Source: Acidobacteriaceae bacterium (GTDB lineage: Bacteria > Acidobacteriota > Terriglobia > Bryobacterales > Bryobacteraceae). Taken from it: DNA of 59,957 bases. Numbering within the stretch: the first letter of the stretch is position 1; each line of letters opens with the position of its first letter. The position numbers were made by a program, and so were the translations under genes. Location of the stretch: NCBI GenBank assembly GCA_019243205.1, contig JAFAUR010000176.1:1-59957 (forward strand). Direction: 5' to 3'. The notes under the pieces are model-generated. The model was not told the DNA's origin. It saw nothing but the letters and a program-made list of their open reading frames with translations, and ran no database searches. Below are positions 3,249 to 40,252 of this stretch, in pieces.

Positions 3249-3273
3249 GTGCCCGCACCTCTGTGGTCAAACG

Positions 3274-6012
<2,739 letters not shown>

Positions 6013-25080: not shown

Positions 25081-25239
25081 GGGATGCGAAGCTTGGCATC
25101 CCGACGGTGCTGGATCGATTTATCCAGCAAGCGGTGATGCAGGTTCTGCAACGGCGCTCATCAAGCAGTAGCGCAGGCACAGCAGTATGTCGCCGAAGGC
25201 TACGGCTGGCGCGTCGATCTTGATCTGGGGAGGTTTTTC
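25062..25239 (+). pseudogene. group II intron reverse transcriptase remnant, N-terminal part (RT domains ~0-2), on the opposite strand
   Basis: The plus strand reads KLGIPTVLDRFIQQAVMQVLQ (25089-25151). After a frame change and deletion it reads AHQAVAQAQQYVAEGYGWRVDLDLGRFF (25156-25239). These are the conserved RT1/RT2 blocks that should precede the minus-strand half. Confidence 0.7.
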
Positions 25240-25322
25240 CTATGGTGCGACACGGTAGAATCCGACGTCCACGAATCACGATGGCGTCGTTGGATTGCGT
25301 TACAGATGTCCGGCTGACTCCT

Positions 25323-26885
25323 TCACCGCTCCTGCCGCGCAGACTGCAACAGGAACTCGAATTGCGGTCTTGTAGAATCGGGTGTCACCGTGATCTTCGT
25401 GTCCAAGTGCAGCACCAGTTTCTCCTTGTCGTAACGAGGCCAGTGCCATAGTCCTTCGCCGTTCGGATCGCCGGCCCGGGCAAAATTCGCCCAGTAGCGC
25501 GTCATCTCATCGCTCAAGACGTAGTCTTGCGGCCGCCACTGCGCTCCATGCCGCGTGTCCAGCGTGCCGAACACATATTCGAGCTCGTCAGAGTGGAACG
25601 CATATTTCCCTTCGGGATGAACCTCGCTCGGCGGCGCGGCCAAGTCGAAACGATAGCGATACACCGGCGCCGCGCCAGTATTCACCTGGGCTTCGATCCA
25701 CCTCCACGTTCCGAGAGCAATGAATTGCGCGGTGGTAAGAGCATCGGCCGATTGGATCGCCTCATCATCGCTTCTTCCCTGAAATGCCGCCAGGAACTCA
25801 TCAGCTCGTTTGCCGTAATGGTCTGCGGCGAACGCCTTCCATTTCTTTGAAGTCATGCCTTTGGACAAGGTGCCCGCCCTCTCGTCACGATTCCATCCAG
25901 CCAGCAGTGGGACGTGCGCCTGATTGCCCGCGGTATAGGTTTCGGGGATGCTTTGCTTCAGGAAGCTGCCGTCGATCACCGGGGTAAACCATCCGACTCC
26001 CTTCTTCTGCGCCCCCTCGATCACCTTGGCCGTGGACATCTGCCGAAACTCCGCGAGACCTCGTACCCCTAGCGAGTCCACCCACTCCTGATCGCGCCGT
26101 ATTCGCGCGGCTAGTGACCCCGCCGGTAAGACGTCGCTGAATGCTGCGCCGCTCTCGCCGATCGCCTTCTGGAACAGTCCTCGTGCTCCCGGTGTCGCCA
26201 TCAAGGTACTCACCGCGAACGAGCCTGCACTCTCACCAAAAATGGTGATGTTGTTCGGATCACCACCGAATCGAGCAATGTTGGCCCGCACCCATCGAAG
26301 AGCGGCAACCATGTCCATCAGTCCGTAGTTGCCCGCCGACCCGCCCCCCTCTTTCGCAAGGTCCTCGCTGGCCAGAAACCCGAAGACTCCCAGCCTGTAG
26401 TTAATCGTGACCAGCACAACCCCTTGAAGTGGCAATGTCGAATTGGTGTACCGCGGTTCTGAACCCGCACCGGCTGTATAGCCGCCTCCATGGATCCAGA
26501 ACATGACCGGCAAACGGCCGCTGTTATCCGCTGCGACAGGAGTGTAGACGTTGAGGTAAAGACAATCTTCGCTGGGTCCAGGATCAAGAAAGAGGTAATC
26601 ACTCCAGATCTGCCATTGCCCACAGCGCGAGCCGAATTTGGTTGCATCGCGCACCTGCTGCCAGGAGGCCGGCGGTTGCGGCGGCATCCAGCGCAGCGGT
26701 CCCACAGGCGGAGCAGCATATGGCAGGCCCAGAAACGCGTGAACCTTTCCGCCGCTGATCAGCTTACCCTGCACTTCGCCTTGTGCAGTAGTCACCCTGG
26801 GCGAACTGGCGGCAGCATGCCCACCAGCCCGAATCGCAAATGCTATGACGGCCATCGCAGATGCCAAACGTACTGTTCGAAACAT
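25323..26885 (-). CDS. carboxylesterase type B (para-nitrobenzyl esterase-like), exported
   Basis: FGESAGS nucleophile elbow, EDCLYLNVY, HGGGY. The start is taken at MFRTVRLASAMAVIAFA (signal peptide); the ORF extends to 26966. Confidence 0.9.
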   Translation of the reverse strand: MFRTVRLASAMAVIAFAIRAGGHAAASSPRVTTAQGEVQGKLISGGKVHAFLGLPYAAPPVGPLRWMPPQPPASWQQVRDATKFGSRCGQWQIWSDYLFLDPGPSEDCLYLNVYTPVAADNSGRLPVMFWIHGGGYTAGAGSEPRYTNSTLPLQGVVLVTINYRLGVFGFLASEDLAKEGGGSAGNYGLMDMVAALRWVRANIARFGGDPNNITIFGESAGSFAVSTLMATPGARGLFQKAIGESGAAFSDVLPAGSLAARIRRDQEWVDSLGVRGLAEFRQMSTAKVIEGAQKKGVGWFTPVIDGSFLKQSIPETYTAGNQAHVPLLAGWNRDERAGTLSKGMTSKKWKAFAADHYGKRADEFLAAFQGRSDDEAIQSADALTTAQFIALGTWRWIEAQVNTGAAPVYRYRFDLAAPPSEVHPEGKYAFHSDELEYVFGTLDTRHGAQWRPQDYVLSDEMTRYWANFARAGDPNGEGLWHWPRYDKEKLVLHLDTKITVTPDSTRPQFEFLLQSARQER

Positions 26886-27119
26886 GTTCAAAGGTTCTCC
26901 TGTGACCCGGGAGGTGTTTGTGCGCGCTGCTGCCGCCGGTTCCGGTCGGGTTCTTTGACCGTTCAAGTATACGCGTATAGGTGTCCCGCGCTCAGGTACG
27001 CCTGTCTTTGATCGTCCGATACAGTTTCACGGACCGTGTTCACACCTCGCGGTCTTGGAGTGGTGGTGCTGCGATTAGTCCGTCGGCGGCGTGGGACGGT
27101 TCACTGGCGGGCTATAACG

Positions 27120-28982
27120 CTAAGTCACTGTCCAGATGCAACCGTAGTTGCTAGGTACAGTGAACGTCTGCCCAGCTCCCGCCACAACACCCCTCAAGTT
27201 CTGTGTGGTCTCGATCTGCTCGACGTAATTCCCACTATGTGGGAACACAAAGCTTGCCGTCTGTTGCTGGTTCGTGAAATTCACGACAACCAGGCTGAAC
27301 ACACTTCCGAGTTGTCGCGAAAACGCCAGCAAACCCTTGGAATTGAAATTACCCTCGTCGTTATAAAAGAAATGGCTGCCGTCGGTGAATTGCGATCCGC
27401 CACGACGGATGTTCGTGAGTTTTCGCACTAAGCGGATGATTGGCCGGCCGTCGTTGTCGTAGAAATAGTTCCAGCGTACTGGGCGATATAACATGACCCG
27501 CCCATAGCCACTTCCTGGAATCCAATAGTTCTCACAGAATTCCTGGCCTTCGCAAAGCAGAGGCGTCCCCTTGCTCGTCAGCAACGCAATCAGATACGGC
27601 TGAACGTTCGGCCACTTTCCGTACCTGTCACCCTCCTGAAGCAAAACGTCGTCCGGATTGTTGTCGATCGGGACCGTGCCGAAATTGCAAATGAACCGCT
27701 GATGATCGTGGTTCTCCACGTATTGAAGCGCGGTCTTGGGAATTGTGTCATTGTTCGCCGTCATCGACGTTGGGTATCCATTGAGCCCCAGCTGCAGTCC
27801 CAGTTGTGTAATCGCACCGGGCTGTCCGGCCGCACAACTCTCGGCTGCCCCAAGCGTGCCGTCCTGCCAGGTGCCGGTGCTGTAACTTCCATATAGGATC
27901 TCGGGCGGATTCGGCAAGTATTCGGCGATCTGAATCAGATTGATATCCCCAGCTGAATCGAAGAACCGCTGGTAGTGGTCTGTCGCACTCGCTTTCGATT
28001 TGACATATTGATACGTTGAGTAAACAAGGTTGGCATACCCTGAGCCCGTCGGACCGTCCCAATACTCCGGCACATCATCGAACCGGAATCCGTCCACGTG
28101 AAACGTATCCAACCAGAACTGATTTACCGAATAATAGTAATCCTGCGTGAGCTGCTTGGAGAAATCATTCAGGATCCCGTAGTCTCCGTTACCGTCATTG
28201 AACGGGTTCGGGAGATCGTTCTGCAAAGCAGTGTAAAGCTGGGTGTAGGCGAAGTCATCGCCCGTGTGACCGTATACCGAATCCACAATCACCGCGATTC
28301 CGTTCTGGTGACATTCGTCGACGAAATGCTGAAAATCGGATGGTCCGCCGAAACGCTCCGCGACGCAAAAGTAACCGATCGGATCGTATCCCCAGTCAAT
28401 CGTGCTCAAGACATTGGATACGGGCATAACTTCGATGCAGTTAATGCCCAGATCCGCCAGGTAGGGTAGCTGCCTGATGGTGCGATCGAGGTCGTTACGG
28501 AACTCGCTGATCATTAATTCGTAGATGATCGCGTTCTTAAGAGGCGGCGTTTTCCACCGCGTTTCGCTGGCGGAAAACGCGTAGGGAGTGGACCCGACAG
28601 TAATAGCCGACAAACGGCCTACGCCGACCTCGCGCGAGAACGGATCGATAATGAAATCAATATCGCCGCGCACGGGACTTCGAATCACGTATCGGTAGAC
28701 ATAACGACCGGCTTGTCCGAATGCAGTCGATCCGGGCGGAGTTGCCGCGGTGTTTAGATCGATGGTCCCTGACCAATAATCGCCGTACATCGCGTCCACA
28801 GAGTGAGTTTGCGCTGCGACCGCTGGTTGAGCGGCCTGCAGGTACTGGTCCGTTTCGTGAATGATTTTGACTGAGACGGCGTAGCCCTTCCCCGGATCGA
28901 CGCCAGGCAGAAAAATTCCAAACTGAATGACCTTGGACGATATTTCAAGGGCGCCCAATTTGTTCATCGGAAGATACTTCAT
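27120..28982 (-). CDS. GH13 alpha-amylase-family glycoside hydrolase with N-terminal E-set/CBM48-like domain
   Basis: GH13 conserved regions DSVYGHT, GFRFDDV and YVENHD. The start is taken at MKYLPMNK with a GGAGG RBS; the ORF extends to 29009. Confidence 0.9.
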   Translation of the reverse strand: MKYLPMNKLGALEISSKVIQFGIFLPGVDPGKGYAVSVKIIHETDQYLQAAQPAVAAQTHSVDAMYGDYWSGTIDLNTAATPPGSTAFGQAGRYVYRYVIRSPVRGDIDFIIDPFSREVGVGRLSAITVGSTPYAFSASETRWKTPPLKNAIIYELMISEFRNDLDRTIRQLPYLADLGINCIEVMPVSNVLSTIDWGYDPIGYFCVAERFGGPSDFQHFVDECHQNGIAVIVDSVYGHTGDDFAYTQLYTALQNDLPNPFNDGNGDYGILNDFSKQLTQDYYYSVNQFWLDTFHVDGFRFDDVPEYWDGPTGSGYANLVYSTYQYVKSKASATDHYQRFFDSAGDINLIQIAEYLPNPPEILYGSYSTGTWQDGTLGAAESCAAGQPGAITQLGLQLGLNGYPTSMTANNDTIPKTALQYVENHDHQRFICNFGTVPIDNNPDDVLLQEGDRYGKWPNVQPYLIALLTSKGTPLLCEGQEFCENYWIPGSGYGRVMLYRPVRWNYFYDNDGRPIIRLVRKLTNIRRGGSQFTDGSHFFYNDEGNFNSKGLLAFSRQLGSVFSLVVVNFTNQQQTASFVFPHSGNYVEQIETTQNLRGVVAGAGQTFTVPSNYGCIWTVT

Positions 28983-29212
28983 AAAGACCTCCGAGCATGG
29001 AGTAAACAATGATCCGCTAAGTATATCTTTGGTGGCGCACCCGACCGGGCAAAACGAGCTACAGCATAGGCGGACGGAAGCACGCCACCGGTACCGACGG
29101 CACTTTCACCCCATTGAACACACGGACGGGGCTTGTGCACCTCCGACCTGCCGCTCGCGAGGTGTCCTTCGATGTCCACCAAAGTGCATGATTGTGAAAC
29201 ACCGCGAGGGCA

Positions 29213-30040
29213 TCATGACCCGGTGTTATCAGAGGCGGCAGCTGTTCCCACCAGCAGCATATAGATCGTCGACTCGTTTACGCCATCCAAACCCAGATAG
29301 CGGTCGATCGCCCGATCGTTATAACCGCCGATGTTAGCCGTCACTAAGTTCATTTCCTGCGCGGTCAGATTAGCATTTTGGGAAAGATGCCCTGCCTCAA
29401 ACAACACAAAACGATATCCGCGATCGCCGTATTTGAACGTGGAGCGTGCAAACACAGCCGAGATCATAAGGATTGCCGCGGCGCCGCGTCCTAAATCGCT
29501 CTGAACCATCATGCACGAGATGGTCTCTGATTCGTCGGCGTTTCGGAGAATGTCCAACGCATGGTCTTCGGGATCATAGTGATACAGTCCCGGCTGCAAT
29601 CCATGAACCCGCGTTGCATGTATGTAGATCTCGAGCGGATACAGTGCGCCGCCCGAGGGGATCACCCGAAAGGGCCGAGGATAGCTGGTTCCCGCATTGC
29701 TTCGGTTTACGCCGTAGCTCATCACCAGAATTTTGGCCAGCTGCTCAAGTGGCATAAAGCCCGAACCAAAGCTACGGGCCGTGTGCCTGGTGTGGAGAAC
29801 ATCATCGAAGGACTTGCTGGATGCGGGCAAGCTGGTAGGTAATGCAAGCTTAGGAAAGTCTGCGTATGGTTTCACGCGTCGCAGCATGTTCATGCCCGCA
29901 ACCACGGTGGCGTCGCTGGGCCAAAACTTAAACAGGTGATGCAACTCAACGAAACTCGTCTTAGAGTTTTCGTGGAATAGCTCCCAGTTCGCGTCGTAAT
30001 CGGATTGCAAGAAATGATAATCGAGAGATTCGAAGGCCAT
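29213..30040 (-). CDS. SagB/McbC-type FMN-dependent azoline dehydrogenase (set 1, B1)
   Basis: WELFHENSK N-terminal signature, RVIPSGGALYPLEIY, and FKYGDRGYRFVLFEAGH (Lys-Tyr motif present). Last gene of the RiPP operon. Confidence 0.9.
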   Translation of the reverse strand: MAFESLDYHFLQSDYDANWELFHENSKTSFVELHHLFKFWPSDATVVAGMNMLRRVKPYADFPKLALPTSLPASSKSFDDVLHTRHTARSFGSGFMPLEQLAKILVMSYGVNRSNAGTSYPRPFRVIPSGGALYPLEIYIHATRVHGLQPGLYHYDPEDHALDILRNADESETISCMMVQSDLGRGAAAILMISAVFARSTFKYGDRGYRFVLFEAGHLSQNANLTAQEMNLVTANIGGYNDRAIDRYLGLDGVNESTIYMLLVGTAAASDNTGS

Positions 30041-30046
30041 AGCTGG

Positions 30047-31393
30047 TTATGGAAAAGGATGTGGATACGGGTTATCGGGTTCGTTTCTTGCCAACCCGCG
30101 ATGGCCGAGCTTTCGAGGAACCTCGTAGAGACGGGTGACACCGAGAGCGCGGTTGCGATGCCCCATGTAAAGCGGGTGTGCACCGGGTACGACAACTCTG
30201 ACCACGTGCAGACCGAGCTCGGCGACGTCAGGAGTAGTTAGTTCGACAACGAGCGGTTCGAGGCCGGCGGCAACGGTGTTTTCTACCAATTTGCGAAGCT
30301 GTTCAGAGGGCGAACCCGCAGACAGATCCGGCTCATCGCAGAGATCGATCTGACGAGTGGACGACCAGGCAAATTCGGCGAACGGCTTGGCATATTGCGG
30401 ACAATAGAACCGCAAGTGATCGCGCTGGTCCTTCACGAGAGGATGTCCCCGATCCACTTCGACCGGCAGCGGTGGCGTGTAGCGAAGAAGCTGCCGGGCA
30501 TACATTCGCGTGTGCGCGAGTTCGTCAAGCGATTTCAGTAGACAACGTTCTGGTGAAGGATCCGCAGCCGCCGCAACGGCGACCGCCGGCGATGTTTCCG
30601 CGTTAGAGACGCCGACGGTCATGATGGCCGGAACGCCTATGTCAGTCGTGATGTCCATCAGGTACACCCTGATGCCGACAGCCTCGAATCGCGAGACCAG
30701 GTCACAACCAAAAGCCGGCAGAGTTTCATGGCGAATAACAGGACAACTCATCATCGCCTGCCATGTGATTGTGAACGCGTCACGTTCCAGAACTTCGCAA
30801 AGTCCGGAGATCGTAGCCTCCGCAATCGAACCGCCACAGGCCAATCCCGTCGAGATTGGCTGCAGAATAAAGGCACTGCGAGTTGCCCCGTGGTAATGAA
30901 ACGGGATGTAGACAGCTGCTGCCGGCACGAACACTCGCTCTCCGGTAACCAGCGATCTAGCCGGCGTCCAGTGCACAGGTGTATCGACTGTAAACGGATG
31001 CCAAAGGAAGCCTTCCGACAAATACTGCTCCGGAAGATACATGGTGAGAAGCTCAGGATGTACTGCGCGGAGGTTTAATTCGCGATGGGCCGCGAACCGA
31101 AAACCGGCAGGATCATAGATGGCGCTGCAATAGCGTTCGATGGCTTCACCCATCGCCTTAGCAATGGCGCTGTAGCGGTCTGTTGAGGCTCCACCGTTAT
31201 CACCGAAGTTACGCATTGCGGTGAAGCGAGACGCGTCGCACGCTTTCGAAAAGTAGTGGAAGAAATCGGGATCGTCATCATCGACGGGCAATTCTTCGAT
31301 CCGTTGAATGATCCCTACTTTCGGGTCGACCAATTGATCCCAAAGCCCAACTATTTGTTCCAGCCGTGCGCGGCTCCGGGTGCTCAGCGGCAT
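30047..31393 (-). CDS. YcaO-domain cyclodehydratase (set 1, D1)
   Basis: Canonical MGEAIERYCS and CEVLERDAF motifs. Pro-rich C-terminus NPYPHPFP. Confidence 0.9.
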   Translation of the reverse strand: MPLSTRSRARLEQIVGLWDQLVDPKVGIIQRIEELPVDDDDPDFFHYFSKACDASRFTAMRNFGDNGGASTDRYSAIAKAMGEAIERYCSAIYDPAGFRFAAHRELNLRAVHPELLTMYLPEQYLSEGFLWHPFTVDTPVHWTPARSLVTGERVFVPAAAVYIPFHYHGATRSAFILQPISTGLACGGSIAEATISGLCEVLERDAFTITWQAMMSCPVIRHETLPAFGCDLVSRFEAVGIRVYLMDITTDIGVPAIMTVGVSNAETSPAVAVAAAADPSPERCLLKSLDELAHTRMYARQLLRYTPPLPVEVDRGHPLVKDQRDHLRFYCPQYAKPFAEFAWSSTRQIDLCDEPDLSAGSPSEQLRKLVENTVAAGLEPLVVELTTPDVAELGLHVVRVVVPGAHPLYMGHRNRALGVTRLYEVPRKLGHRGLARNEPDNPYPHPFP

Positions 31394-31414: not shown

Positions 31415-32476
31415 TTATTCATGCGGAATCAGACTGCCGACAATCAGCGCCCGGGAAGCTTTTCGCATGATCTCGCCACAATCCGGACAGCGTGGGATCT
31501 TCAGTATACGGCGAACGGTGGAAGAGAATGAAAACAGATTCAGTTCGATGCTCCGGCCGGCTGTATCTGGCGGCGGGTACCCAGCAATGAATTTCACAAC
31601 CTCAATGGCCGCGATCTCGCCGAGCGCAGAGGCCATGGGAGGAAGCAGTCCCGCGGAAACCATGCTGCCCGGATTGGCGCTTGCGTGACGCCGAAGCGCT
31701 CGCCCGGCGGCATAGTTCGGATTGTTGGATTCCCTTCTCAAGAAGTAGCAGCGGAGACAGGCATTTTCATACGGGTGATTGAGAGGTCCCACATAGCCGA
31801 GCAGGTCCGCCTGCCAAACGGGAAGGAACGGCTTCTCGATTCTCAATGCGGTTCGGCTAAACTCGAGCAGCGCATCGCCTTGATCGAAGTCACTCGTTGC
31901 ACAGATAACCGAGCATTCTGACAGTTCTCCGTCGGAGGACAATTCGGGCACGCGTCGCAGGCGGTCTTCGCCCGGTTGGAATCCAACCGGTGCTACCTCG
32001 TTGTTCAAATTAGTGTCATCCACCAGCGTGATCCTGCCAATGCCCGATTCCAGGAGGCTGCGCAGCATCGCTCGCGCTATCAAAGTAACTCCTGCAACCA
32101 CAACATGCGCGTTCCCGAGCCGCTGTGGAGCATTGCGACCCTCCTCGCCCATGTTCCACCAGAATGCCGTTTGAAGTGACTCGAGGCTTGCCTCGTTGAC
32201 GTCCGGCCCCGGCTCTTCTGTGATGAGCCTCCGAAGCTGCATCGTGGTCAGCAAGTTGCCGACTTCGCCACGCAAATGTTCCGGAAAGCTATCCACAATG
32301 TCTTCGGGCGTACGGCTCCCATCGAACTGTTGGATGAGCGACTCGAGGATAGAGTGCACCTGAGCGCCACTAACTACCAGCTCATTGACGCCGCGCTTCA
32401 GAACCGCAGTATCATCAGAAACCCGGACGTATCGAAGATCGGTGCCGTACACTTTGTCCTCTCTGATTTTTGGCAT
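31415..32476 (-). CDS. TOMM cyclodehydratase C protein / E1-like leader-peptide-binding partner (set 1, C1)
   Basis: N-terminal RRE-like VLKRGVNELVVSGAQVHSILESLIQQFDGSRTPEDIV. Cys pairs CLRC ... CPDC. Adjacent to the YcaO gene. Confidence 0.85.
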   Translation of the reverse strand: MPKIREDKVYGTDLRYVRVSDDTAVLKRGVNELVVSGAQVHSILESLIQQFDGSRTPEDIVDSFPEHLRGEVGNLLTTMQLRRLITEEPGPDVNEASLESLQTAFWWNMGEEGRNAPQRLGNAHVVVAGVTLIARAMLRSLLESGIGRITLVDDTNLNNEVAPVGFQPGEDRLRRVPELSSDGELSECSVICATSDFDQGDALLEFSRTALRIEKPFLPVWQADLLGYVGPLNHPYENACLRCYFLRRESNNPNYAAGRALRRHASANPGSMVSAGLLPPMASALGEIAAIEVVKFIAGYPPPDTAGRSIELNLFSFSSTVRRILKIPRCPDCGEIMRKASRALIVGSLIPHE

Positions 32477-32511
32477 GCCGGCGTAATTGCTTGGTGAGCA
32501 ATCGCGCCGGC
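32477..32511 (-). promoter_or_regulatory. RNA stem-loop between the precursor gene and C1, ending at nucleotide -1 of the C1 start codon
   Basis: The mRNA sense reads GCCGGCG-CG-ATTGCT-CACCA-AGCAAT-TA-CGCCGGC followed directly by ATG. This gives 7 + 6 bp of stem around a 2x2 internal mismatch and a 5-nt loop, with no U-tract. Confidence 0.5.
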
Positions 32512-32531
32512 AAATTTATATTCCGGTAGCG

Positions 32532-32921
32532 TTATACGGCGAGGGGATCGACCTGCACCGCGGCTGAACAACAGGAGCAGCAGGGAGTACAGCAGCAGCA
32601 ACAGCTATCGCCTAATGCCTTAACATTCTGTGGAGTGTGGACACTAGTAAGCTTGTTTACTCCCTGGAAATTCGCGATCACCTGATATCGATAATCGGCA
32701 AAGAGACCGTCAATGGTAACCAGGTCGTGTGTAGTCAGCGCATTCACCTTGGGATTTTCCACAGGAGCAGGCGGCACACCAAAGGCCATCGCCATATCTG
32801 CAAAGTCGGCCGGGGTCATGCTGCGGACTGTGTGTGAGGTTTTGAAGCTGTCCAGTTTCTCTGCGGGAAAGATTTCCTCAACAGAGAACCGTTTCTTGTC
32901 TCCACCAGGTGGAGGATTCAT
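32532..32921 (-). CDS. RiPP precursor peptide with Cys/Ser/Thr-saturated core
   Basis: 129 aa. AGGAG lies 7 nt upstream of the ATG. The C-terminal region reads ..KALGD SCCCCCTPCCSCCS AAVQVDPLAV. It sits between two cyclodehydratase/dehydrogenase sets. Confidence 0.8.
   Translation of the reverse strand: MNPPPGGDKKRFSVEEIFPAEKLDSFKTSHTVRSMTPADFADMAMAFGVPPAPVENPKVNALTTHDLVTIDGLFADYRYQVIANFQGVNKLTSVHTPQNVKALGDSCCCCCTPCCSCCSAAVQVDPLAV
32565..32606 (-). other. predicted core-peptide segment SCCCCCTPCCSCCS (codons 106-119 of the precursor)
   Basis: The mRNA reads AGC TGT TGC TGC TGC TGT ACT CCC TGC TGC TCC TGT TGT TCA. Confidence 0.7.
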
Positions 32922-32936
32922 CTTTACTCTCCTTTC

Positions 32937-33779
32937 TCATAACGTTGTTACTTCCGCTACGCGGCCCTGCCGGCCGCCCCTTTCATGCGCACCAGCTTTG
33001 CCCACCGCTACGATGAAAATCGTGGATGCGGTGAGTCCGTCGAGCGCAAGAAAATCGTCTATTGCCGGGTCAAAGTATTCACCGGTGTTCACGCAGGACA
33101 ATCGAAGAGACCCTGCAATCAGGTTCAGATTGCGGACGACTGCGCCGGCTTCCTGATGTACAAACCGATAACCGCGATCTCTATATCGCAAAACAGAACG
33201 CTCCGGCACAGCTGAGATCAAAACGATCAAGGCGGCCGAGAGCGCGACACGCCCATCTATCAATGCGGCGGCGATCTTCTGCGATTGATCACCGGAACGC
33301 AACAGTCGCAGTGAATTGCCGGGTGGGTAATAGTGATAAAGACCACGTTCGAGGCCCGCGATGCTCGCGTTGTGAACAAAAAGTTCGAGTGGATAAGATG
33401 AATTTTCAGAATGAACAGCCCGGCGCTGGCGCGCGCTGTCCGGATCCGGACGCCGTTCCATAATGCCGTAGCTGTAGTGCAACAGCGCCGCCGCCGCGTC
33501 TAGCGGGACTGTGATCGGTTCCAGTTCGGTAACCACCGCGTTACGCGCGAGCGCTTCCTGTAAAGGCTCCGATCCCAGGGCCGCAGGGTTCGGCAGTTTG
33601 ATCTCCGGGTAGCTCTCGAATCTCAGCGATTCCAGTATCTGCTTCTGATAGAAAGCCGTCACTTCTGCAGGCAGGATGCCGTCGTTCGAAAACAATTTTG
33701 AATTCTCATGGAAAAGCTCCCACGGCGAGTCATGCTCGGGTAACGGCGTCGTCAGGAGCTCCCAAGTTGTCGAAATCAC
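32937..33779 (-). CDS. SagB/McbC-type dehydrogenase paralogue (set 2, B2), divergent
   Basis: WELFHENSK signature and DRGYRFVHQEAG are present. However, B2 has LRY where B1 has FKY, and HSENSSYP where B1 has PSGGALYP. Its GTG start overlaps the D2 stop (GTGA). Confidence 0.85.
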   Translation of the reverse strand: MISTTWELLTTPLPEHDSPWELFHENSKLFSNDGILPAEVTAFYQKQILESLRFESYPEIKLPNPAALGSEPLQEALARNAVVTELEPITVPLDAAAALLHYSYGIMERRPDPDSARQRRAVHSENSSYPLELFVHNASIAGLERGLYHYYPPGNSLRLLRSGDQSQKIAAALIDGRVALSAALIVLISAVPERSVLRYRDRGYRFVHQEAGAVVRNLNLIAGSLRLSCVNTGEYFDPAIDDFLALDGLTASTIFIVAVGKAGAHERGGRQGRVAEVTTL

Positions 33780-35101
33780 GACATCACTCCTTTTCGTGGG
33801 AAAGGATGGGGCAACGGATTATCTCCGGTCTCTGGCCTAATGCCGCCGAGGCTCAGCCCTTGCGGAACTTCCCACAACCGGCACCCTCCTAAAGCGCGTG
33901 AACGGTAGCCGAAGAACAGTGGATGCAGACCCGGAATGATGGCACGGATAACTGTCAGCTCGAGGTCTGCGACGTCTGATGTCGTCAGGTTTGCAAGTAC
34001 TGTGTAATAACCAGCCGCCTCGATATTGTTGAGAAGCTTTTGAAGATCGCGACCCGGATATCCGGTAGATAAATCCTCTAACTGGTCGAATTCGATTCGT
34101 TCGCGCGACGAGAATACAAAATCGGCTTGTGCGGAGTTCCGCGGATCGGACCAGAACCGCAAATGCTCACTCTGATCACGAACGCTTTGCGGATCTCGAT
34201 ATCCACAATCCTGCGCTCTCAACAGCTGGCAATACTGATGAACGTGAGCAAGCATTTCGAGGCTTTTACGGACTCCATTTTCCGGAGTCAAACTGGTTCC
34301 GGCTGCAAAGGTCCGGGCTGGCGCTCCCGGGCGAGAATCTGACAGCACTGCAAGAATGCTGGGTATTCCGAGGTCGAACTCAACCTTGAAGAGCGTGACC
34401 GAAGCACCAGTACTTTCAAATCGCGTCACAAGCTCATAATTGGCGTCGCTCAAGGTCTCCACTCGGATTTGTGGCATGCTCAGCCTCGCCTGCCAAAGCA
34501 GCGCAAGAGCATCACATTCGATCACATCGCAAATTGCCTCTGTCGCTGCGCAAGCGGCAATCCAGTGGCAGGCAAGACCGGTTGAAGTGGGCGGCATAAT
34601 CGGCGCCTCGTCAAACCCGAGGACGGCGGGAGCGGTCAGGAATCGCATCGCGGAAGGAATAAAAACAGATGCCTCTGTTACCGGGTTTACGGCTTCGCTC
34701 CACTGAACCGGTGTGTGTCGACTAAAAGCGACCCAGGGGAAATCGGGCTGCGTATACTGTTCCTCGCTAAACAAGGCGAAATCTTCGGGAACAACACAAG
34801 GAAAAGGCGCGCCGTGGGCTGGGCCAATCGGATGCTTGCCATCTTCCTCCGAGATCAGCGCCGCGCAATACGAGGCGATGCCGTCGAGAACCACGCGTGT
34901 CACAGCACTCTTCCGATCTGCCCCGGCTGCCCCGCCCGGTCCCGGAATCGCGTACTCGCTAAATGCGCGCGTGCTGCACGGGTGAACCACGTAGTGGAAA
35001 AATGATGGAGCGCCTGGCGCAAGACGCATCTCCGCTACTGAGCTGAGCACGCCCACCTCATTATCGACTAACTTGTCGATCAGCTGCGTGATTCCGTTCA
35101 T
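33776..35101 (-). CDS. YcaO-domain protein paralogue (set 2, D2), with substituted acidic motifs
   Basis: It aligns by eye with D1 along its length and has the Pro-rich C-terminus NPLPHPFP. The motifs read VLDGIASYCAA and CDVIECDAL. The start is taken at MNGITQ, which forms an ATGA overlap with the C2 stop. Confidence 0.85.
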   Translation of the reverse strand: MNGITQLIDKLVDNEVGVLSSVAEMRLAPGAPSFFHYVVHPCSTRAFSEYAIPGPGGAAGADRKSAVTRVVLDGIASYCAALISEEDGKHPIGPAHGAPFPCVVPEDFALFSEEQYTQPDFPWVAFSRHTPVQWSEAVNPVTEASVFIPSAMRFLTAPAVLGFDEAPIMPPTSTGLACHWIAACAATEAICDVIECDALALLWQARLSMPQIRVETLSDANYELVTRFESTGASVTLFKVEFDLGIPSILAVLSDSRPGAPARTFAAGTSLTPENGVRKSLEMLAHVHQYCQLLRAQDCGYRDPQSVRDQSEHLRFWSDPRNSAQADFVFSSRERIEFDQLEDLSTGYPGRDLQKLLNNIEAAGYYTVLANLTTSDVADLELTVIRAIIPGLHPLFFGYRSRALGGCRLWEVPQGLSLGGIRPETGDNPLPHPFPRKGVMS

Positions 35102-36171
35102 TGGCCCTCTTCTGTTCTTGGCATCGATAAAGATGCGCGCGTCAAAGCTGTAGAGGGAGTCCGGTTGAGGCGGGAACAAACGGGACAACGCGGGACCTTT
35201 AGGACCTGCAGCGGTTTCATCTCGCTGCCAAGCAAGTTGACTTTGATCAGAGTCCCCGGCCTCGCGATGCTGCCGCCAATGCCAAAGTATTTCGTAATCT
35301 CGAGGGCAGCAATGTCACCGAGAATGGTTGCCATGGAAGGATGAAATCCGCCGATAGCCTGCTTATGAATGAAGGCGGCTTCCACTGCTCGTCGGCTTTG
35401 AAAGTCGAGCAAATGCGCATTCTGCCGGAGCCGGACGCATTCGAAACAGGGGGTTTGACCGGGCACAACAATCGGACCGACATACCCGACGAGGTCCTGA
35501 AGCATCACGGGTACGAACTGCAGGTTGTGGAGCACGCAAAATTCATTCCATAACCGCATTTGTTCGACGCCGCCGCTGTCGGAAGTGGCGATAACACAGT
35601 CGAGAGTATCCGGATCAAGATCTTCAGCGTATTCACTTACAGGGGCAGACCATTCCCGCATCCGAAGAGCACCGCCGTCATCAAACAGAGCTTCATTACG
35701 AAGCAATGGTTGGTCGATGACCTCAAGCTCTTCAGCGCCCGATGCTCGCAGACCGGCTATGAGCTGACGCGAAATATAGTTTACGCCTGTTATCTTGATG
35801 CGCTTCGCATTTAATCTCTCGCGGACCTGCGCAGTTTGTGTACCGAAGTGCCAATAGAAAACCTCGAGCTGCGATTCAGAGGTGCGCCCATCGGCCGCCG
35901 GTGTCTCCTCGCTCACGAGGATCGACCGGCTCAGCAGATGATCAATCAAGGCTTCAGCACCCGCGACTTCGCCCGCTGGGAAGAGCGCGACGAGTTCGTC
36001 ACGGGTTGCGCCATTGCGGGCGCAATCGAGCAGGCGGCCTACCGCGTCTGCGGCTCCGGTTCCGGCGATCCTCAGTTCGACTCGTCCGCGCTTGAGTACG
36101 AGAGCGTCCCCTGTGTCGATCAGGTTTACCGGGAGGACCCGAAGCTTTTCGGATTGGAGTTCCAGTTTCAT
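35098..36171 (-). CDS. TOMM cyclodehydratase C protein / E1-like partner (set 2, C2)
   Basis: RRE-like LVLKRGRVELRIAGTGAADAVGRLLDCARNGATRDELV. Cys pairs CFEC ... CPVC. ATGA overlap with the upstream radical SAM stop. Confidence 0.85.
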   Translation of the reverse strand: MKLELQSEKLRVLPVNLIDTGDALVLKRGRVELRIAGTGAADAVGRLLDCARNGATRDELVALFPAGEVAGAEALIDHLLSRSILVSEETPAADGRTSESQLEVFYWHFGTQTAQVRERLNAKRIKITGVNYISRQLIAGLRASGAEELEVIDQPLLRNEALFDDGGALRMREWSAPVSEYAEDLDPDTLDCVIATSDSGGVEQMRLWNEFCVLHNLQFVPVMLQDLVGYVGPIVVPGQTPCFECVRLRQNAHLLDFQSRRAVEAAFIHKQAIGGFHPSMATILGDIAALEITKYFGIGGSIARPGTLIKVNLLGSEMKPLQVLKVPRCPVCSRLNRTPSTALTRASLSMPRTEEGQ

Positions 36172-37547
36172 GCGTTCAGGATCGGGAACTCACAACTGGG
36201 CTGCGGGGGAGCAGGTTGAAATGTGCGCTCGGCTTCTACCATCGTCAACGCGCTTGGGCGATGCGGCGCATACACGCCTCCAAAAACCCGATACAGGTCT
36301 TGATACTCGTGTTCAAAGACACTCTTCGGCAAGGCGGTTTGTGTGACTGGGTGCTGCAGATCAAATAATTCCCAGTTAGGCCTCCCGTTGGGCTGGCGCT
36401 CCGTTATGGCATCGAACGTATCGAGCGCTTCGGTTCCCGGCAGCGGCGTCAAAACCGTGAACGATGGATAATCGACCCGGTTGTGCTCAATAAAGCGGAT
36501 TAACTGCTTGAAGCAGCGCTTGGTGTAATTGGTGTTCACTATGAACCCGCCAAACACATGTATGCCCAATTGTTTCGCTGCCCGAAGGCCGTTCTCTATC
36601 TGCGCTACGTCGAGCCGTTTGTTGTACTCCTTCAGTTCGTTCGCGGTTACCGCTTCAATGCCAATGAATAGCCGTTCCAGGCCGATTTCAGCCCACATGG
36701 CCATCAACTGTGGTTGGCGCAGAAGTGTATCGATGCGGCAGTACGTGAAGTAGCGTTTGCGGATTCCCGCAGCCCTGATAGCCTGGGCAAGCAGCGTCAT
36801 CCGCTTGCCATTTATAAAAGCCTCGTCATCTACCAGGAAAATCGATTGTTCTTGAACAGAGGCGATCTCCGCAACTACACGGTCGACATCACGCATGTGA
36901 TAACGGCCATCTTGGATCTTCCAAAGCGAGCAGAAGGAGCAGCGATACGGGCATCCAACCGTTGTGCGCAGTAGTGCGATTGGTTTCATCCAATCGATGA
37001 AATAACTTTGGCGGTCCGGACCGGCAATGAAACGATTTGGCGAGGGAAGTTGATCGATGTTGTACGAGAGAGGGTTACCGCCGTCGACGAACTCGTCGCC
37101 TGTGCGCGCCCAGACACCGGGGATGGTCTCCGGAATACCGCGTTCCAAGCCACGCAGGATCGCGCGAAACGGATGAACTCCTTCCCCTCGGACAACAAAA
37201 TCGAACTGAGGCAGGAAGAAATCCTCCGGAAGCAGCGTGGCGTGATGCCCGCCAACGACTACCCGGCATGCCGGCAAGAGCCCCTTGATTCGCTTTGCGA
37301 TCGCGATGTTACGCAGGACGTGCATGCTGTACCCGGTGAGAGCTGCAACATCGGGCCGATATTGGGTCAAGGTGGAGTCGAGATCATTCGGGTGCAGCCG
37401 TAAATCGAGAAGCCGGACATCATGGCCATCGAGTTCCGCGCCCGCTGCCAAATATTCCAGAGCAAGCGGTTCAGCTACGGCGCCCAGATCTCCGTACCCA
37501 ATGATCTCCTTGCGCAGACTGGGATACAAAAGAAGAACTCTCAACAC
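36168..37547 (-). CDS. B12-binding-domain radical SAM enzyme (class B, putative methyltransferase) #2
   Basis: N-terminal B12-binding-like VLLLYPS..LEYLAAGAELDGHDVRLLDL. Radical SAM cluster motif GCPYRCSFCSLW. The start is taken at the GTG at 37547, overlapping the methyltransferase stop; the ORF extends to 37637. Confidence 0.85.
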   Translation of the reverse strand: MLRVLLLYPSLRKEIIGYGDLGAVAEPLALEYLAAGAELDGHDVRLLDLRLHPNDLDSTLTQYRPDVAALTGYSMHVLRNIAIAKRIKGLLPACRVVVGGHHATLLPEDFFLPQFDFVVRGEGVHPFRAILRGLERGIPETIPGVWARTGDEFVDGGNPLSYNIDQLPSPNRFIAGPDRQSYFIDWMKPIALLRTTVGCPYRCSFCSLWKIQDGRYHMRDVDRVVAEIASVQEQSIFLVDDEAFINGKRMTLLAQAIRAAGIRKRYFTYCRIDTLLRQPQLMAMWAEIGLERLFIGIEAVTANELKEYNKRLDVAQIENGLRAAKQLGIHVFGGFIVNTNYTKRCFKQLIRFIEHNRVDYPSFTVLTPLPGTEALDTFDAITERQPNGRPNWELFDLQHPVTQTALPKSVFEHEYQDLYRVFGGVYAPHRPSALTMVEAERTFQPAPPQPSCEFPILNA

Positions 37548-38377
37548 GCCCCCTGCCTCTGTTCCTCTCTGTGCGCAGTGACCATGAAGCTGTGCGGCAC
37601 GTCCTTGAGCGTTCGCGGCAAAACCGGATAGGGCCAACGTCCTTGGCCTGCTCCAGGTTCTCCGGGAGACGTTACATGAGCTGACCAGCCGAGCAAACGA
37701 AGCAGTCCCTCGGGGTCATCAGTAGCCGAAAGCCAAGGTGTCCCGTTCTTAGCGAGGGAGTCCAGCGCTGTTCTCATCCAGGGACTTGTCAGGAAAGAAC
37801 GGCTAATGAAATCCGCCGCGAGAGCGCTGCCAGGCGCGCTGTCTTCCGATAAACGAGCGAGTATCTCCGCTACAGCGTTCTCTTGTAAGTAATAGAACAG
37901 ACCCTCAGCAATCCAGAGAGAGGGCGCGTTAGCTCGAAATCCAGCAGCCCGAAGCGCGCTGGTCCACGAGCCTTCCAGATCCGTGCCTACCGCGACTCTG
38001 CGACACAGGGCTGGAGAATCCCTGCCCAGGATTCTGTTCTTAACCTTGAGCAACTCGGGATCATCGAGTTCAAAGACAGTTGTACTCGCCGGCCACTCCA
38101 GCCGGAGTGCGCGAGTGTCCATTCCTGCTGCCACGAGTACCACCTGTCGAATGCCGTCGTTCGCTACGGAGACAGCGAATTCATCGAAGAAGCGCGTGCG
38201 GATCGCTATATAGGGGCCCACATCCGGCATGCCACGCTCGGGCGAGCGAAGCATTTTGAACCCTTCCTCTCCCGCCAGGGATCGCGCGAAGGGATCTGTG
38301 AAAAGACGATCGGGACGTTCCGATTCCAGAGCCCGAATCGCAGCTGTCATCAGAGCGGTATGTGCGACCTTTCTCAA
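37541..38377 (-). CDS. class I SAM-dependent methyltransferase, leucine carboxyl methyltransferase (LCMT / TIGR00027-like) family
   Basis: TALMTAAIRALES..LFTDPFA, VLVAAGMDTRALRL and VFELDDPELLKVK are typical of this O-methyltransferase family. Confidence 0.85.
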   Translation of the reverse strand: MRKVAHTALMTAAIRALESERPDRLFTDPFARSLAGEEGFKMLRSPERGMPDVGPYIAIRTRFFDEFAVSVANDGIRQVVLVAAGMDTRALRLEWPASTTVFELDDPELLKVKNRILGRDSPALCRRVAVGTDLEGSWTSALRAAGFRANAPSLWIAEGLFYYLQENAVAEILARLSEDSAPGSALAADFISRSFLTSPWMRTALDSLAKNGTPWLSATDDPEGLLRLLGWSAHVTSPGEPGAGQGRWPYPVLPRTLKDVPHSFMVTAHREEQRQGAC

Positions 38378-38587: not shown

Positions 38588-40252
38588 TTATGCACGCGGC
38601 AGCGGTGGCGATTTACGGCTCAAAATTTCGTGTAACGCAGCGAACTCGGGTGCCGCGCGAATAGCGCTCGCGGATACATCCTTACCCAAAAAGCGATTGA
38701 AAGCGCTTACGCCGAGGCGCACATCGTCAACAGAGAAACCATTTGCGTACAACAAAAACTCCGTCCAAGCCTCGCCGCGCACAGCATTATGAACGGCGTA
38801 CCTCTGCTCTTCCGCCACTTTTCTGGCAAGTACTTGCGCGGTTCGCGAATCCATGGTGTTGTGTTTCCAGTCCATACCCATACCCTCGATACCGAATTCC
38901 ACCGCACGGGCTCCCACCGGTGTGGATGGAATGTAGACCCACGTGCAGACCGTGCAGAACGGAAGCTGCATCTCGTCCAGGAAACTTACAATCTTCCAGG
39001 CCGAATCTTCCGTCTCTCCCGGATAACCCACGATGAAGTTCGCATGAACCTCAATGCCGTATTTGCGTAGGTGGTCAATACCGCGCTTGTACTGCTGTAC
39101 CTGGGCGACCTTGTTCATGTTTTTCAGAATCCGATTGTCAGCGGATTCCAACCCGGCAAAAACCGCCCGGCAGTGCGATTCCTTCATCAGCCGGGCTGTC
39201 TCTTCGTCCGCATATTGCGGACGAAAAAAGGAATACCATTCGAAATCGAACTTGGCCAATACTTTGAGTAACTGTTTGAAACGGCCAAGCGGCACGTTGA
39301 AGGTATCGTCCGTAAAAATCAGGGAGCGCACCGAGCCCAGCTTGCGCAGTTCCTGCAGCTCCCGATCTACAACCTCCACCGGTGTCAACGTGAGCGGTCC
39401 CTGATTAACCGGGTATTCACAAAAGGCGCACTTGAACGCACAGCTTCGCGCGGTGCGTATGTGAACGGTGTGATACAGGTGATCCGTTTGCGGTAATCGG
39501 CTCCAGTGAATGAATGGTTCGTCCGTCTGGAAGGGCGGCTCCGGCGCGTCCGGGGGTGGGATGACGCTGCGGCCACAACGTATGTAGGTACGGGGAATGC
39601 TCGGGTCCGTGATGAGCGCCTGGAGCGAGGACCGTCGAAGTATCTCAAGTAAGGGCACTTCGCCGCGCGGGCTCACAACGTACAGATCCGCGCCATAGGA
39701 TTGCAATTGTGAAAGAAAAATTGGGCGAGGAAGATTTTTCTCGTAACTTACAAGCATTAAGCCCCCGAGAACGATCAGCGCATCTGGCCACTCTTTGCGG
39801 ATTTGGGCGATCGCAAGGGGAATGGTTTCTCTCTCGGCGGCGTCGAAGAGAAGCGTAGTGGAAAGCAGAATGAATCGGGGCTTGTATTCGCACCCGAGGG
39901 CGCTCAAGCGCTCGCGGTTAACCGAGTTAGCGACGCGCACCTTGAACCCGTGGCGCGAAAGCACGTCAAGGTAGTAACTGCCCGCAAGCAGGGTTAGGTT
40001 GAACGGATCATAGCGTTCATGCTCCCGGGTCGAGCCCGTTTTGACCCAGCTTAGGAATCGGCTAAAGTCATACAGCTTTCCGTCGATGACAAGGTCCACC
40101 TCATCCTTCATGAACAATTCATCGGATAATGCGGCGTGAATCCCGCGCGTTCGCGCCATGGACGGCCGCTCGTAGTCGAGATCTGTATCGTTGTGCCACC
40201 GATCCTCGTTGGCATAGAAAGGAATGAACAGCGCGTCCAGAGTCTCAGGCAT
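38588..40252 (-). CDS. B12-binding-domain radical SAM enzyme (class B) #1
   Basis: 554 aa. Radical SAM motif ARSCAFKCAFCEYP preceded by a Rossmann-like B12-binding-type region (RFILLSTTLLFD..LIVLGG). The start overlaps the hydrolase stop by 8 nt (ATGCCTGA). Confidence 0.85.
   Translation of the reverse strand: MPETLDALFIPFYANEDRWHNDTDLDYERPSMARTRGIHAALSDELFMKDEVDLVIDGKLYDFSRFLSWVKTGSTREHERYDPFNLTLLAGSYYLDVLSRHGFKVRVANSVNRERLSALGCEYKPRFILLSTTLLFDAAERETIPLAIAQIRKEWPDALIVLGGLMLVSYEKNLPRPIFLSQLQSYGADLYVVSPRGEVPLLEILRRSSLQALITDPSIPRTYIRCGRSVIPPPDAPEPPFQTDEPFIHWSRLPQTDHLYHTVHIRTARSCAFKCAFCEYPVNQGPLTLTPVEVVDRELQELRKLGSVRSLIFTDDTFNVPLGRFKQLLKVLAKFDFEWYSFFRPQYADEETARLMKESHCRAVFAGLESADNRILKNMNKVAQVQQYKRGIDHLRKYGIEVHANFIVGYPGETEDSAWKIVSFLDEMQLPFCTVCTWVYIPSTPVGARAVEFGIEGMGMDWKHNTMDSRTAQVLARKVAEEQRYAVHNAVRGEAWTEFLLYANGFSVDDVRLGVSAFNRFLGKDVSASAIRAAPEFAALHEILSRKSPPLPRA

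Follow-up and report, generated by a model that had tools for sequence, protein, structure and literature searches.

A polycysteine precursor gene between two C/D/B enzyme sets

The subject of this analysis is a small gene in a 59,957-nucleotide stretch of DNA from an Acidobacteriaceae bacterium (assembly GCA_019243205.1, contig JAFAUR010000176.1; hereafter the window). An earlier inspection of the letters alone (the original prediction) had taken its open reading frame (ORF) for the precursor of a ribosomally synthesised, post-translationally modified peptide (RiPP) having an almost entirely heterocyclisable core. The gene sits in a 12-gene same-strand cluster between two sets of azole-forming enzyme genes, each comprising an E1/ThiF-like protein (C), a YcaO protein (D) and a SagB-type protein (B), which are referred to here as C1, D1, B1 and C2, D2, B2. 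The locus has the following features (pLDDT, predicted local distance difference test score):

32532..32921, minus strand: precursor peptide gene, 129 aa plus stop, with ATG start, Shine-Dalgarno sequence, 36 close homologues and synonymous-only core variation
32640..32897, minus strand: predicted folded leader domain, residues 9-94, all-helical, with two LTxxD[LF]xxhxxxF-like motifs
32607..32639, minus strand: variable linker, residues 95-105, with conserved G104-[SD]105 at its end (variable alignment columns; pLDDT <50)
32565..32606, minus strand: core SCCCCCTPCCSCCS, residues 106-119 (C107-C111, T112, P113, C114 and C115 invariant in 36 of 36 close homologues)
32535..32564, minus strand: follower AAVQVDPLAV, residues 120-129 (A120, A121 and P126 invariant among the 36 close homologues)
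32927..32933, minus strand: Shine-Dalgarno sequence AGGAGAG, ending 5 nt ahead of the precursor ATG
32476..32512, minus strand: GC-rich RNA hairpin in the interval from the precursor stop codon to C2 (-27.2 kcal/mol, z -3.1)

The complete translation is MNPPPGGDKKRFSVEEIFPAEKLDSFKTSHTVRSMTPADFADMAMAFGVPPAPVENPKVNALTTHDLVTIDGLFADYRYQVIANFQGVNKLTSVHTPQNVKALGDSCCCCCTPCCSCCSAAVQVDPLAV, and its C-terminal part reads ...NVKALGD-SCCCCCTPCCSCCS-AAVQVDPLAV. Thirteen of the 14 core residues are Cys, Ser or Thr; nine of them are Cys, with C107-C111 consecutive, and Pro113 is the sole exception. On re-translation, the residue numbers, the nine Cys with five in a row, the exceptional Pro113 and the 10-residue tail of the original prediction all proved correct. 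A Cys-density scan of the 84,408 stop-free 14-residue segments in six frames placed every segment with at least seven Cys inside this ORF; neither a further precursor nor any other ORF rich in Cys came to light in the window.

The stop codon of B1 (32937..32939) lies just upstream of the Shine-Dalgarno sequence. At the other end of the gene, the 3' arm of the hairpin ends on the A of the C2 ATG, and the hairpin overlaps the expected place of the C2 ribosome-binding site. Hairpins of unrelated sequence occur at the same position in the related loci L001 (~10407-10476), L006 (~3241-3279), L007 (~10450-10478) and L008 (~5429-5473), with z values of -2.7 to -5.2. RiPP operons commonly keep the precursor in excess over the enzymes by such a device and, by analogy, the hairpin probably raises the precursor-to-enzyme ratio. 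A Shine-Dalgarno sequence combined with a hairpin behind the gene is typical of a highly expressed precursor gene. A scan of the cluster for promoter and terminator consensus sequences gave counts below the shuffled expectation.

The precursor belongs to a conserved family with a near-invariant core

A search of 5.8 billion proteins returned 36 homologue clusters with 44-87% identity to the window protein. CCCCCTPCC is invariant in all 36, that is, the close homologues keep the Cys-rich C-terminus as the original prediction implied, and the ORF is likewise conserved beside homologous enzyme clusters in at least five other acidobacterial loci. The alignment of the 36 close members (A1) also contains invariant leader positions, namely N56, L62, D66, L67, L73, F74, Y77, R78 and N84. 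Across six loci the core codons differ synonymously only (TGT/TGC, ACT/ACG/ACA, CCC/CCG, TCC/TCG, AGC/AGT/TCG), which shows purifying selection on the core at the protein level. The ORF at 32532..32921 is a real, selected gene. At the leader/core junction, which reads KALGD-S, Gly104 and Ser106 hardly vary among the close homologues. Asp125 of the follower is not conserved among the close homologues, many of which have Cys or a gap in place of Ser116; the latter residue is absent from the wider family. One close homologue is annotated as a hypothetical protein of the acidobacterium Candidatus Sulfopaludibacter / Solibacteraceae SbA4, and a scan of a genome collection with strict patterns matched a single species representative, Solibacteraceae SbA4.

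The family extends well beyond these relatives. Seventy-six clusters emerged when 1.84 billion representatives were searched exhaustively with a profile, and a second, word-indexed search queried with distant members found 128; in total the family comprises more than 200 homologue clusters, and more than 120 beyond the 36 close ones keep the motif. Nearly all wider-family members end in [DN][VI]SCCCCTPCC[CS]CAA..[DE]xxP[FIL] or near variants, the follower signature throughout being AA...P[FIL]. Here D[VI]S stands ahead of the Cys run, unlike the G-[SD]-S junction of the close family. Family-wide, the core [S]CCCC(C)TPCC..AA shows hardly any variation, which is unusual for RiPPs. The leaders of the close and wider families are homologous too, beyond the cores, as judged by profile-profile comparison with hhalign (probability 99.9%). 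Members occur in soil Acidobacteria, in Actinobacteria, including cultured Streptosporangium and Cryptosporangium, and in Proteobacteria; the named sources in the wider family are Streptosporangium spp., Cryptosporangium aurantiacum, Pseudonocardia and Sphingomonas, and all of these proteins are labelled 'hypothetical protein'. In 11 of 11 loci examined, from three phyla, the precursor co-occurs strictly with C-D-B genes. Conservation of the homologues and the C/D/B neighbours thus support the original view of a precursor with an almost fully heterocyclisable core beside azole-forming enzymes.

Some distant members carry signals for twin-arginine translocation (Tat). Twelve of the 53 distant members in a second alignment (A2) match the TAT_signal_seq model, and a sequence-pattern scan flags further members of the wider set with textbook RRxF[LM]K-hydrophobic-AxA signals; the pattern scan found none in the window protein or its acidobacterial relatives. 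Members with a Tat signal ahead of the leader domain are P0086, P0089, P0091, P0093, P0108, P0110 and others, and include the one at locus L009 (10001-10561). Read from their sequences, the Tat signals on the distant branch would imply export of a folded precursor that is modified in the cytoplasm.

The leader is predicted to be a folded helical domain

AlphaFold2, run on the 36-member alignment, predicts residues ~11-80 to form a compact, all-helical domain of ~75 aa with pLDDT values of 94-98, and assigns values below 50 to linker, core and follower. Predicted disorder of the core and tail is as expected for a substrate segment. Foldseek found no match to the leader fold in the PDB (best E 2.4). 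The window protein matched no relevant family in Pfam and NCBIfam at E values up to 10, including NHLP, Nif11 and streptolysin S, and none of 89 relatives (36 scanned against Pfam, 53 against NCBIfam) matched NHLP or Nif11 (TIGR03793/TIGR03798 and the Pfam equivalents) or another precursor family; the sole matches in these scans were weak Tat-signal and streptolysin-S ones. A profile search of PDB sequences gave compositional matches to the core alone, that is, to PbtA and to a designed protein with a poly-Cys tail. The lack of Pfam, NCBIfam and PDB matches, together with the confident helical prediction, suggests that the leader is a folded domain of a new kind. The earlier remark that the leader resembles neither NHLP nor Nif11 leaders and fits no defined precursor family is borne out by these scans.

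The domain contains two similar motifs, MTPADFADMAMAF and LTTHDLVTIDGLF, at residues ~35-47 and 62-74 (32690..32820, minus strand). They follow the pattern [ML]TxxD[FL]xx[MIL]xxxF, which takes the forms LTxxDLxDLAxxF and LTxxDxxxIExxF in the wider family. This pair may stem from a duplication within the domain, or its two copies may be separate docking sites.

The C/D/B sets differ in their catalytic motifs

The enzyme genes on either side of the precursor gene are the following:

31415..32476, minus strand: C2, E1/ThiF-like member of the leader-binding protein family of thiazole/oxazole-modified microcins (TOMMs) (TIGR03882 52.4 bits, cut-off 36.9)
30047..31393, minus strand: D2, canonical YcaO cyclodehydratase (TIGR03604 290 bits, cut-off 219; PF02624 2.1e-69)
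29213..30040, minus strand: B2, SagB-type FMN dehydrogenase (TIGR03605 154 bits, cut-off 78.4; PSGGALYPLE, K-Y and EAGH intact)
32937..33779, minus strand: B1, divergent SagB-type protein (TIGR03605 104 bits, cut-off 78.4)
33776..35101, minus strand: D1, divergent YcaO paralogue (TIGR03604 204 bits, below the cut-off of 219)
35098..36171, minus strand: C1, second E1/ThiF-like protein of the leader-binding family (TIGR03882 49.4 bits, cut-off 36.9)

TIGR03882 stands for 'TOMM precursor leader peptide-binding protein', and leader binding by C1 and C2 is thus predicted from their sequences. The D1 ORF extends to 35188, but its orthologues support the ATG at 35101.

The paralogues of the two sets share 37% (D1/D2), 28% (C1/C2) and 33-35% (B1/B2) identity. 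When compared with the single set of Streptosporangium-type loci, D2 and B2 are 50-56% identical and D1 and B1 29-36%; likewise, the single C of Streptosporangium shares 36% identity with C2 and 25% with C1. For D2 alone, identity to the single D amounts to 52-56% in the Streptosporangium-type loci L003 and L004 and to 47% in Cryptosporangium (L005). In alignments with LynD, TruD and MusD, the heterocyclases of cyanobactins, D2 shows both ATP/Mg motifs, GEAIERY and CEVLERDAF, in intact form; its C-terminal end is PHPFP. Judged by sequence, C2-D2-B2 is the canonical ancestral set, orthologous to the single Streptosporangium-type set.

Set 1 is different. D1 has LDGIASY in place of GEAIERY, CDVIECD in place of CEVLERD, and six additional residues, RKGVMS, past PHPFP. 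The corresponding pattern, xD[AG][IV][AS]xY and CD[VA][IV]ECD with R[KR]G[MV]xS at the C-terminus, is common to ~30 cluster representatives with 47-86% identity, for which reason the changes are not random decay; GE.[IV]ERY and CE..ERD are present in all canonical relatives retrieved, each of which has PHP[FY]P as its C-terminal end. Members of the D1 subfamily are P0213-P0237, P0241, P0255, P0258 and P0260, and P0262, P0264, P0269 and P0280 are still more divergent relatives of D1 with degenerate motifs and extended C-termini. B1 in turn has HSENS for PSGGA, R-Y for K-Y and EAGA for EAGH. Its orthologues show HS/YSxxS..P[LV]E where PSGGALYPLE is expected and EAGA for EAGH, and in four of five the Lys of K-Y is replaced by Arg.

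Published work on YcaO and SagB proteins assigns Mg-ATP or FMN binding and a requirement for activity to the positions altered in D1 and B1, and in azoline-forming YcaOs the active site is reached by the C-terminus. The features of a canonical azoline-forming YcaO, namely the acidic motifs and a free PxPxP end, are missing from D1. Given these departures from the catalytic motifs, set 1 may not be a cyclodehydratase/dehydrogenase pair. The original prediction had counted two azole-forming C/D/B sets: the family assignments behind this count stand, albeit with D1 below the TIGR03604 cut-off, but the equivalence of the two sets does not. We know of no characterised precedent for a YcaO that has lost the canonical Mg/ATP residues and carries an extended C-terminus.

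Accessory genes and synteny

The remaining genes of the cluster encode putative tailoring enzymes and a hydrolase (SAM, S-adenosylmethionine):

41044..41994, minus strand: Rieske / KshA_C-type non-haem iron oxygenase (PF00355 and PF19298)
40245..41126, minus strand: alpha/beta hydrolase, start codon uncertain (PF12697, PF00561)
38588..40252, minus strand: second radical SAM enzyme, 554 aa, PhpK-family-like B12 methyltransferase (TIGR04479 344 bits, below the cut-off of 600)
37541..38377, minus strand: LCM/TIGR00027-type SAM-dependent O-methyltransferase (PF04072 5.5e-51; TIGR00027 228 bits, cut-off 94)
36168..37544, minus strand: B12-binding radical SAM enzyme, HpnR-like, probably a C-methyltransferase (PF02310 and PF04055; TIGR04367 238 bits, below cut-off)

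In the Rieske protein, CPHRGA..CPFHG and ENxFDxxHFxxVH are invariant in six orthologues, that is, the [2Fe-2S] ligands and the mononuclear-iron motif are kept. The hydrolase conserves A[LM]SFG, VG[DE] and GHL in seven orthologues, with the Ser, Asp/Glu and His positions kept in acidobacterial, actinobacterial and Tat-type loci. As these motifs are intact, both enzymes are probably active. The two genes are paired in L001, L004, L006, L008, L009 and the P0029 contig, while L003 pairs the hydrolase with a truncated KshA_C-only gene, and we regard them as the signature accessories of the family. The ORF of the B12-binding radical SAM enzyme extends to 37637, with its orthologues aligning from residue 32; its identity amounts to 74% with the orthologue in L001 and to 54% with the one in the Tat-type locus L009. 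L001, L006, L008 and the P0029 contig each encode an orthologue of the 554-aa radical SAM enzyme.

The order B12-binding radical SAM gene, C1, D1, B1, precursor gene (A), C2, D2, B2 is fixed in L001, L006, L007 (partial), L008 and the P0029 contig, and the accessory block of 554-aa radical SAM enzyme, hydrolase, Rieske protein and methyltransferase recurs, rearranged, in five other metagenomic loci. The LCM methyltransferase is found in L001, L006, L007 and L008 and is confined to the acidobacterial branch; in the P0029 contig (JGI 3300056388) a class-I methyltransferase takes its place. The original prediction had offered the tail Asp or the C-terminal carboxyl as target of this enzyme. An LCM-type gene is indeed part of the cluster, but as it is branch-confined and replaced in one locus, and as Asp125 is not conserved, a carboxyl target amounts to a guess. 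The P0029 contig additionally encodes two S8 proteases, one of 1197 aa and one with PatG_D and PatG_C domains, as well as a third ThiF-like protein; this gene content hints at macrocyclisation in that branch.

In the neighbourhoods of the wider family, A-C-D-B is the minimal unit and the Rieske and hydrolase pair is kept in most, with LuxC/LuxE, JmjC, short-chain dehydrogenase/reductase (SDR), P450, amine oxidase and B12-binding radical SAM genes as variable extras. The actinobacterial loci L003 (Streptosporangium becharense) and L004 (a related metagenomic contig), in which precursor and C-D-B genes lie beside LuxE/LuxC (acyl-protein synthetase/reductase), JmjC, SDR, P450 and amine oxidase genes, have a tailoring set different from that of the window. 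In L010 (Sphingomonas sp., DATBDV010000011.1), the C-D-B set next to the family precursor is duplicated and a PhyH-type oxygenase replaces the Rieske protein; since both copies are canonical, this duplication is independent. A protein of ~700 aa with no Pfam match on record is common to L005 (13799-16009), L009 (15192-17222) and L010 (1650-3893), with a mutual identity of 25-32%, and is absent from the window and the acidobacterial loci.

The cluster boundaries exclude three flanking genes that are absent from all related loci and were therefore rejected as members: a GH13-like gene (27120..29009), a carboxylesterase gene (25323..26966) and a sulfite-oxidase-like gene (42371..43456). Two adjoining ORFs at 23966..25279 (minus strand) match parts of an ISNCY-family transposase, and the longer one also matches a segment of a group II intron reverse transcriptase/maturase; this region, ~4 kb downstream of the cluster, resembles a disrupted mobile element. 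Elsewhere the window carries ordinary chromosomal genes (glyQS, recO, efp, PEPCK, PPDK, adk, TonB-dependent receptors and glycosidases). ORFs without a Pfam match lie at 45617..46714 (minus strand, 365 aa; also without an NCBIfam match), 47012..47917 (plus strand, 301 aa) and 9762..10982 (plus strand, 406 aa).

A probable azole RiPP precursor and competing explanations

We consider it very probable that the gene encodes a genuine azole RiPP precursor, of the linear azol(in)e-containing peptide (LAP) or TOMM kind, which is processed by the adjacent C, D and B enzymes. Four features of such systems are present, namely a YcaO protein (D2), E1-like proteins (C1/C2), SagB-type proteins (B1/B2) and a leader followed by a Cys/Ser/Thr-rich core. 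As in LAPs/TOMMs of the microcin B17, plantazolicin and goadsporin type, the core is C-terminal and encoded beside C, D and B genes, and contiguous azoles would be expected as in plantazolicin. The latter had been put forward as the nearest analogy, but it shares the contiguous-azole idea only, and the core resembles SagA and PbtA more. Unlike LAPs/TOMMs, the present family combines a folded leader of ~105 aa that belongs to no known family with a core that is near-invariant over more than 200 clusters, a second, motif-divergent C/D/B set and, as accessories, a Rieske oxygenase, an alpha/beta hydrolase and two B12-binding radical SAM enzymes, and the window lacks a CaaX protease and an ABC exporter. 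Several points weigh against an azole RiPP. Antibiotic RiPPs usually have variable cores, among which a near-invariant one is atypical; 13 consecutive-type cyclisations may not be sterically achievable; the departure of D1 and B1 from the canonical motifs casts doubt on the role of half of the 'azole machinery'; and family scans of ORFs of at least 100 aa across the window found no dedicated protease (C39, CaaX, PatA/G), exporter or immunity gene in the cluster.

Alternatively, the product could be a conserved functional molecule and not a released antibiotic, that is, a polyazole cofactor, metallophore, chromophore or prosthetic group kept on the folded 'leader'. In this case the mature species would be the complete modified protein, exported in its folded state by the Tat pathway in some lineages. 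In favour of this, the core hardly varies between phyla, which is also the case in cofactor-type RiPPs, the leader is confidently predicted to be a folded domain, 12 of 53 distant members have Tat signals (with clear RRxF[LM]K motifs, e.g. in P0086, P0089, P0093 and P0108), and genes for a protease, an exporter or immunity are missing from the window cluster. However, Tat signals are missing from the window protein as well as from its relatives in Acidobacteria, proteolytic trimming would fit with the conservation of follower and hydrolase, and the cluster contains no metal-uptake or redox partner. Moreover, a structured leader need not be retained, as the NHLP leaders of proteusins, whose structured nature is described in PMC12455567, are removed nonetheless. 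We judge this possibility to be unlikely.

The likeness of the core to SagA raises the question of a streptolysin-S-like cytolysin, i.e. a membrane-damaging polythiazole toxin matured by SagBCD-type enzymes. The SagA core of streptolysin S is CCCCCTTCC, preceded by a leader of ~23 aa. Both cores contain a run of five Cys followed by Thr and two Cys, CCCCCT.CC being most like SagA, and the enzymes belong to the SagB, SagC and SagD families. In addition, nine of 53 wider-family members match the streptolysin S model TIGR03602 weakly (best E 0.011), although the window protein itself does not match at E values up to 10. Unlike in streptolysin S, the leader is structured and 4-5 times longer, Pro113 is invariant, and the hosts are environmental Acidobacteria and Actinobacteria, the present one being a soil acidobacterium. 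The scans of the window revealed no equivalent of the SagE-type CaaX protease, SagF or the SagGHI ABC transporter. A cytolysin is thus quite improbable.

Still weaker is the case for a thiopeptide-type precursor of the thiomuracin/GE2270 kind, in which Ser106 and Ser116 would form a pyridine macrocycle. The family profile matches the GE2270 precursor PbtA (SCNCVCGFCCSCSPSA) over the core (E 0.012), and nine C/S positions of the GE2270-type core, S1, C2, C4, C6, C9, C10, S11, C12 and S14, coincide with the window core. C-methylation by radical SAM enzymes and hydroxylation occur on GE2270-type thiazole-rich scaffolds as well. However, the leader is unrelated, the pyridine-forming Ser (Ser116) is not conserved here, and family scans of the window found neither a LanB-type Ser/Thr dehydratase nor a [4+2] pyridine synthase; a sub-threshold Lant_dehydr_N match covers 76 residues of C1 (E 0.0044, 15.7 bits as compared to a cut-off of 28). 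Gene content effectively refutes this explanation. An unmodified Cys-rich, metallothionein-like protein, for which nine potentially metal-binding Cys in 14 residues could be cited, or a spurious ORF amid enzyme genes is hardly credible in view of the strict co-occurrence with C-D-B genes, the purifying selection on the core and the expression signals on either side of the gene.

Further RiPP classes share some traits with the azole RiPP precursor that we favour. As in proteusins, the leader is long and predicted to be structured, which would allow recognition at the domain level, a concept that has been described for structured NHLP leaders (PMC12455567), and B12-binding radical SAM C-methyltransferases are associated. 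Unlike in proteusins, there is no NHLP/Nif11 match, no PDB match to the fold, no C39-peptidase ABC exporter and no double-glycine site. Cyanobactin membership was rejected, as a PatA/PatG-type subtilisin protease or macrocyclase with its recognition sequences is not present in the window.

Bottromycin biosynthesis employs two YcaOs, of which one forms the thiazoline and the other the macroamidine. The present cluster resembles it in having two paralogous YcaOs for one precursor, B12-binding radical SAM methyltransferases and an alpha/beta-hydrolase-fold protein, and by analogy this suggests a division of labour between D1 and D2. Unlike in bottromycin clusters, each YcaO has its own C and B partner, and D1 lacks the canonical Mg/ATP residues and has an extended C-terminus. 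An origin of the thiangazole, tantazole and mirabazole type, in which a CCCCC-T core and B12-binding radical SAM enzymes would yield methyl-thiazolines, is speculation that we did not adopt; no gene-cluster paper was found.

In the open-access literature, the motif strings CCCCCTPCC and CCCCTPCC occur in no paper, and nothing relevant was found on acidobacterial YcaO/azole clusters or on RiPPs combining YcaO, Rieske protein and hydrolase. A 2015 paper on the TOMM landscape contains no mention of Acidobacteri, Solibacter, CCCC or radical SAM, and neither Pfam (2025) nor NCBIfam (June 2026) holds a model for the precursor family. The family thus appears to be undescribed in databases and open-access literature, while an earlier description elsewhere is possible.

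Proposed pathway and significance

From the predicted enzyme functions we infer the following route, bearing in mind that our confidence in a specific final structure is much below that in an azole RiPP precursor as such. The 129-aa product would consist of a helical leader domain (~9-94), a flexible linker, the 14-residue core and the 10-residue follower, and would be made in excess over the enzymes with the help of the hairpin behind its gene. The leader domain would be docked by the E1-like C2, perhaps also by C1. D2, acting with C2 and using ATP, would cyclodehydrate the Cys and probably also the Ser and Thr residues onto the preceding carbonyls, and the FMN dehydrogenase B2 would oxidise the azolines. 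This would result in up to seven contiguous azoles (S106-T112), a Pro113 hinge and up to six more azoles (C114-S119). Subsequent tailoring may involve C-methylation by the two B12-dependent radical SAM enzymes, hydroxylation by the Rieske protein and O-methylation of a carboxyl or hydroxyl group by the LCM-type enzyme. The alpha/beta hydrolase, as sole hydrolase candidate in the cluster, could trim the AA...P follower or the leader. C1-D1-B1, which is specific to the acidobacterial branch and no simple duplicate, may serve as a non-catalytic or regulatory partner or carry out a different reaction.

A more far-reaching idea combines several of these observations. That is, the family may produce a single conserved polythiazole scaffold, composed of two azole blocks hinged at the invariant Thr-Pro, with a housekeeping-like role as cofactor, metallophore, chromophore or redox wire. 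It would be mounted on a new folded carrier that is exported by the Tat pathway in some lineages after modification in the cytoplasm, and in the acidobacterial branch D1, its nucleotide and Mg motifs altered, would be a neofunctionalised YcaO performing a non-azoline reaction. We regard this composite picture as speculative and give it rather little weight.

Taken together, what is new here is a precursor family with a predicted new leader fold, an unusually invariant polycysteine core, Tat-signal relatives and a YcaO paralogue with a rewired active site. If made as predicted, the product would be among the longest contiguous polythiazole runs of any ribosomal peptide, with up to 7 + 6 azoles around a Pro hinge. 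The leader would add a second kind, with no relation to NHLP/Nif11, to the folded leader domains of RiPPs and thereby offer a system for studying protein-protein recognition of substrates, whereas the D1 subfamily with its rewired active-site motifs would provide either a pseudo-enzyme partner or new YcaO chemistry. The members in cultured actinomycetes make the family experimentally accessible. Finally, the near-invariance of the core suggests that the family serves a conserved molecular target or function.

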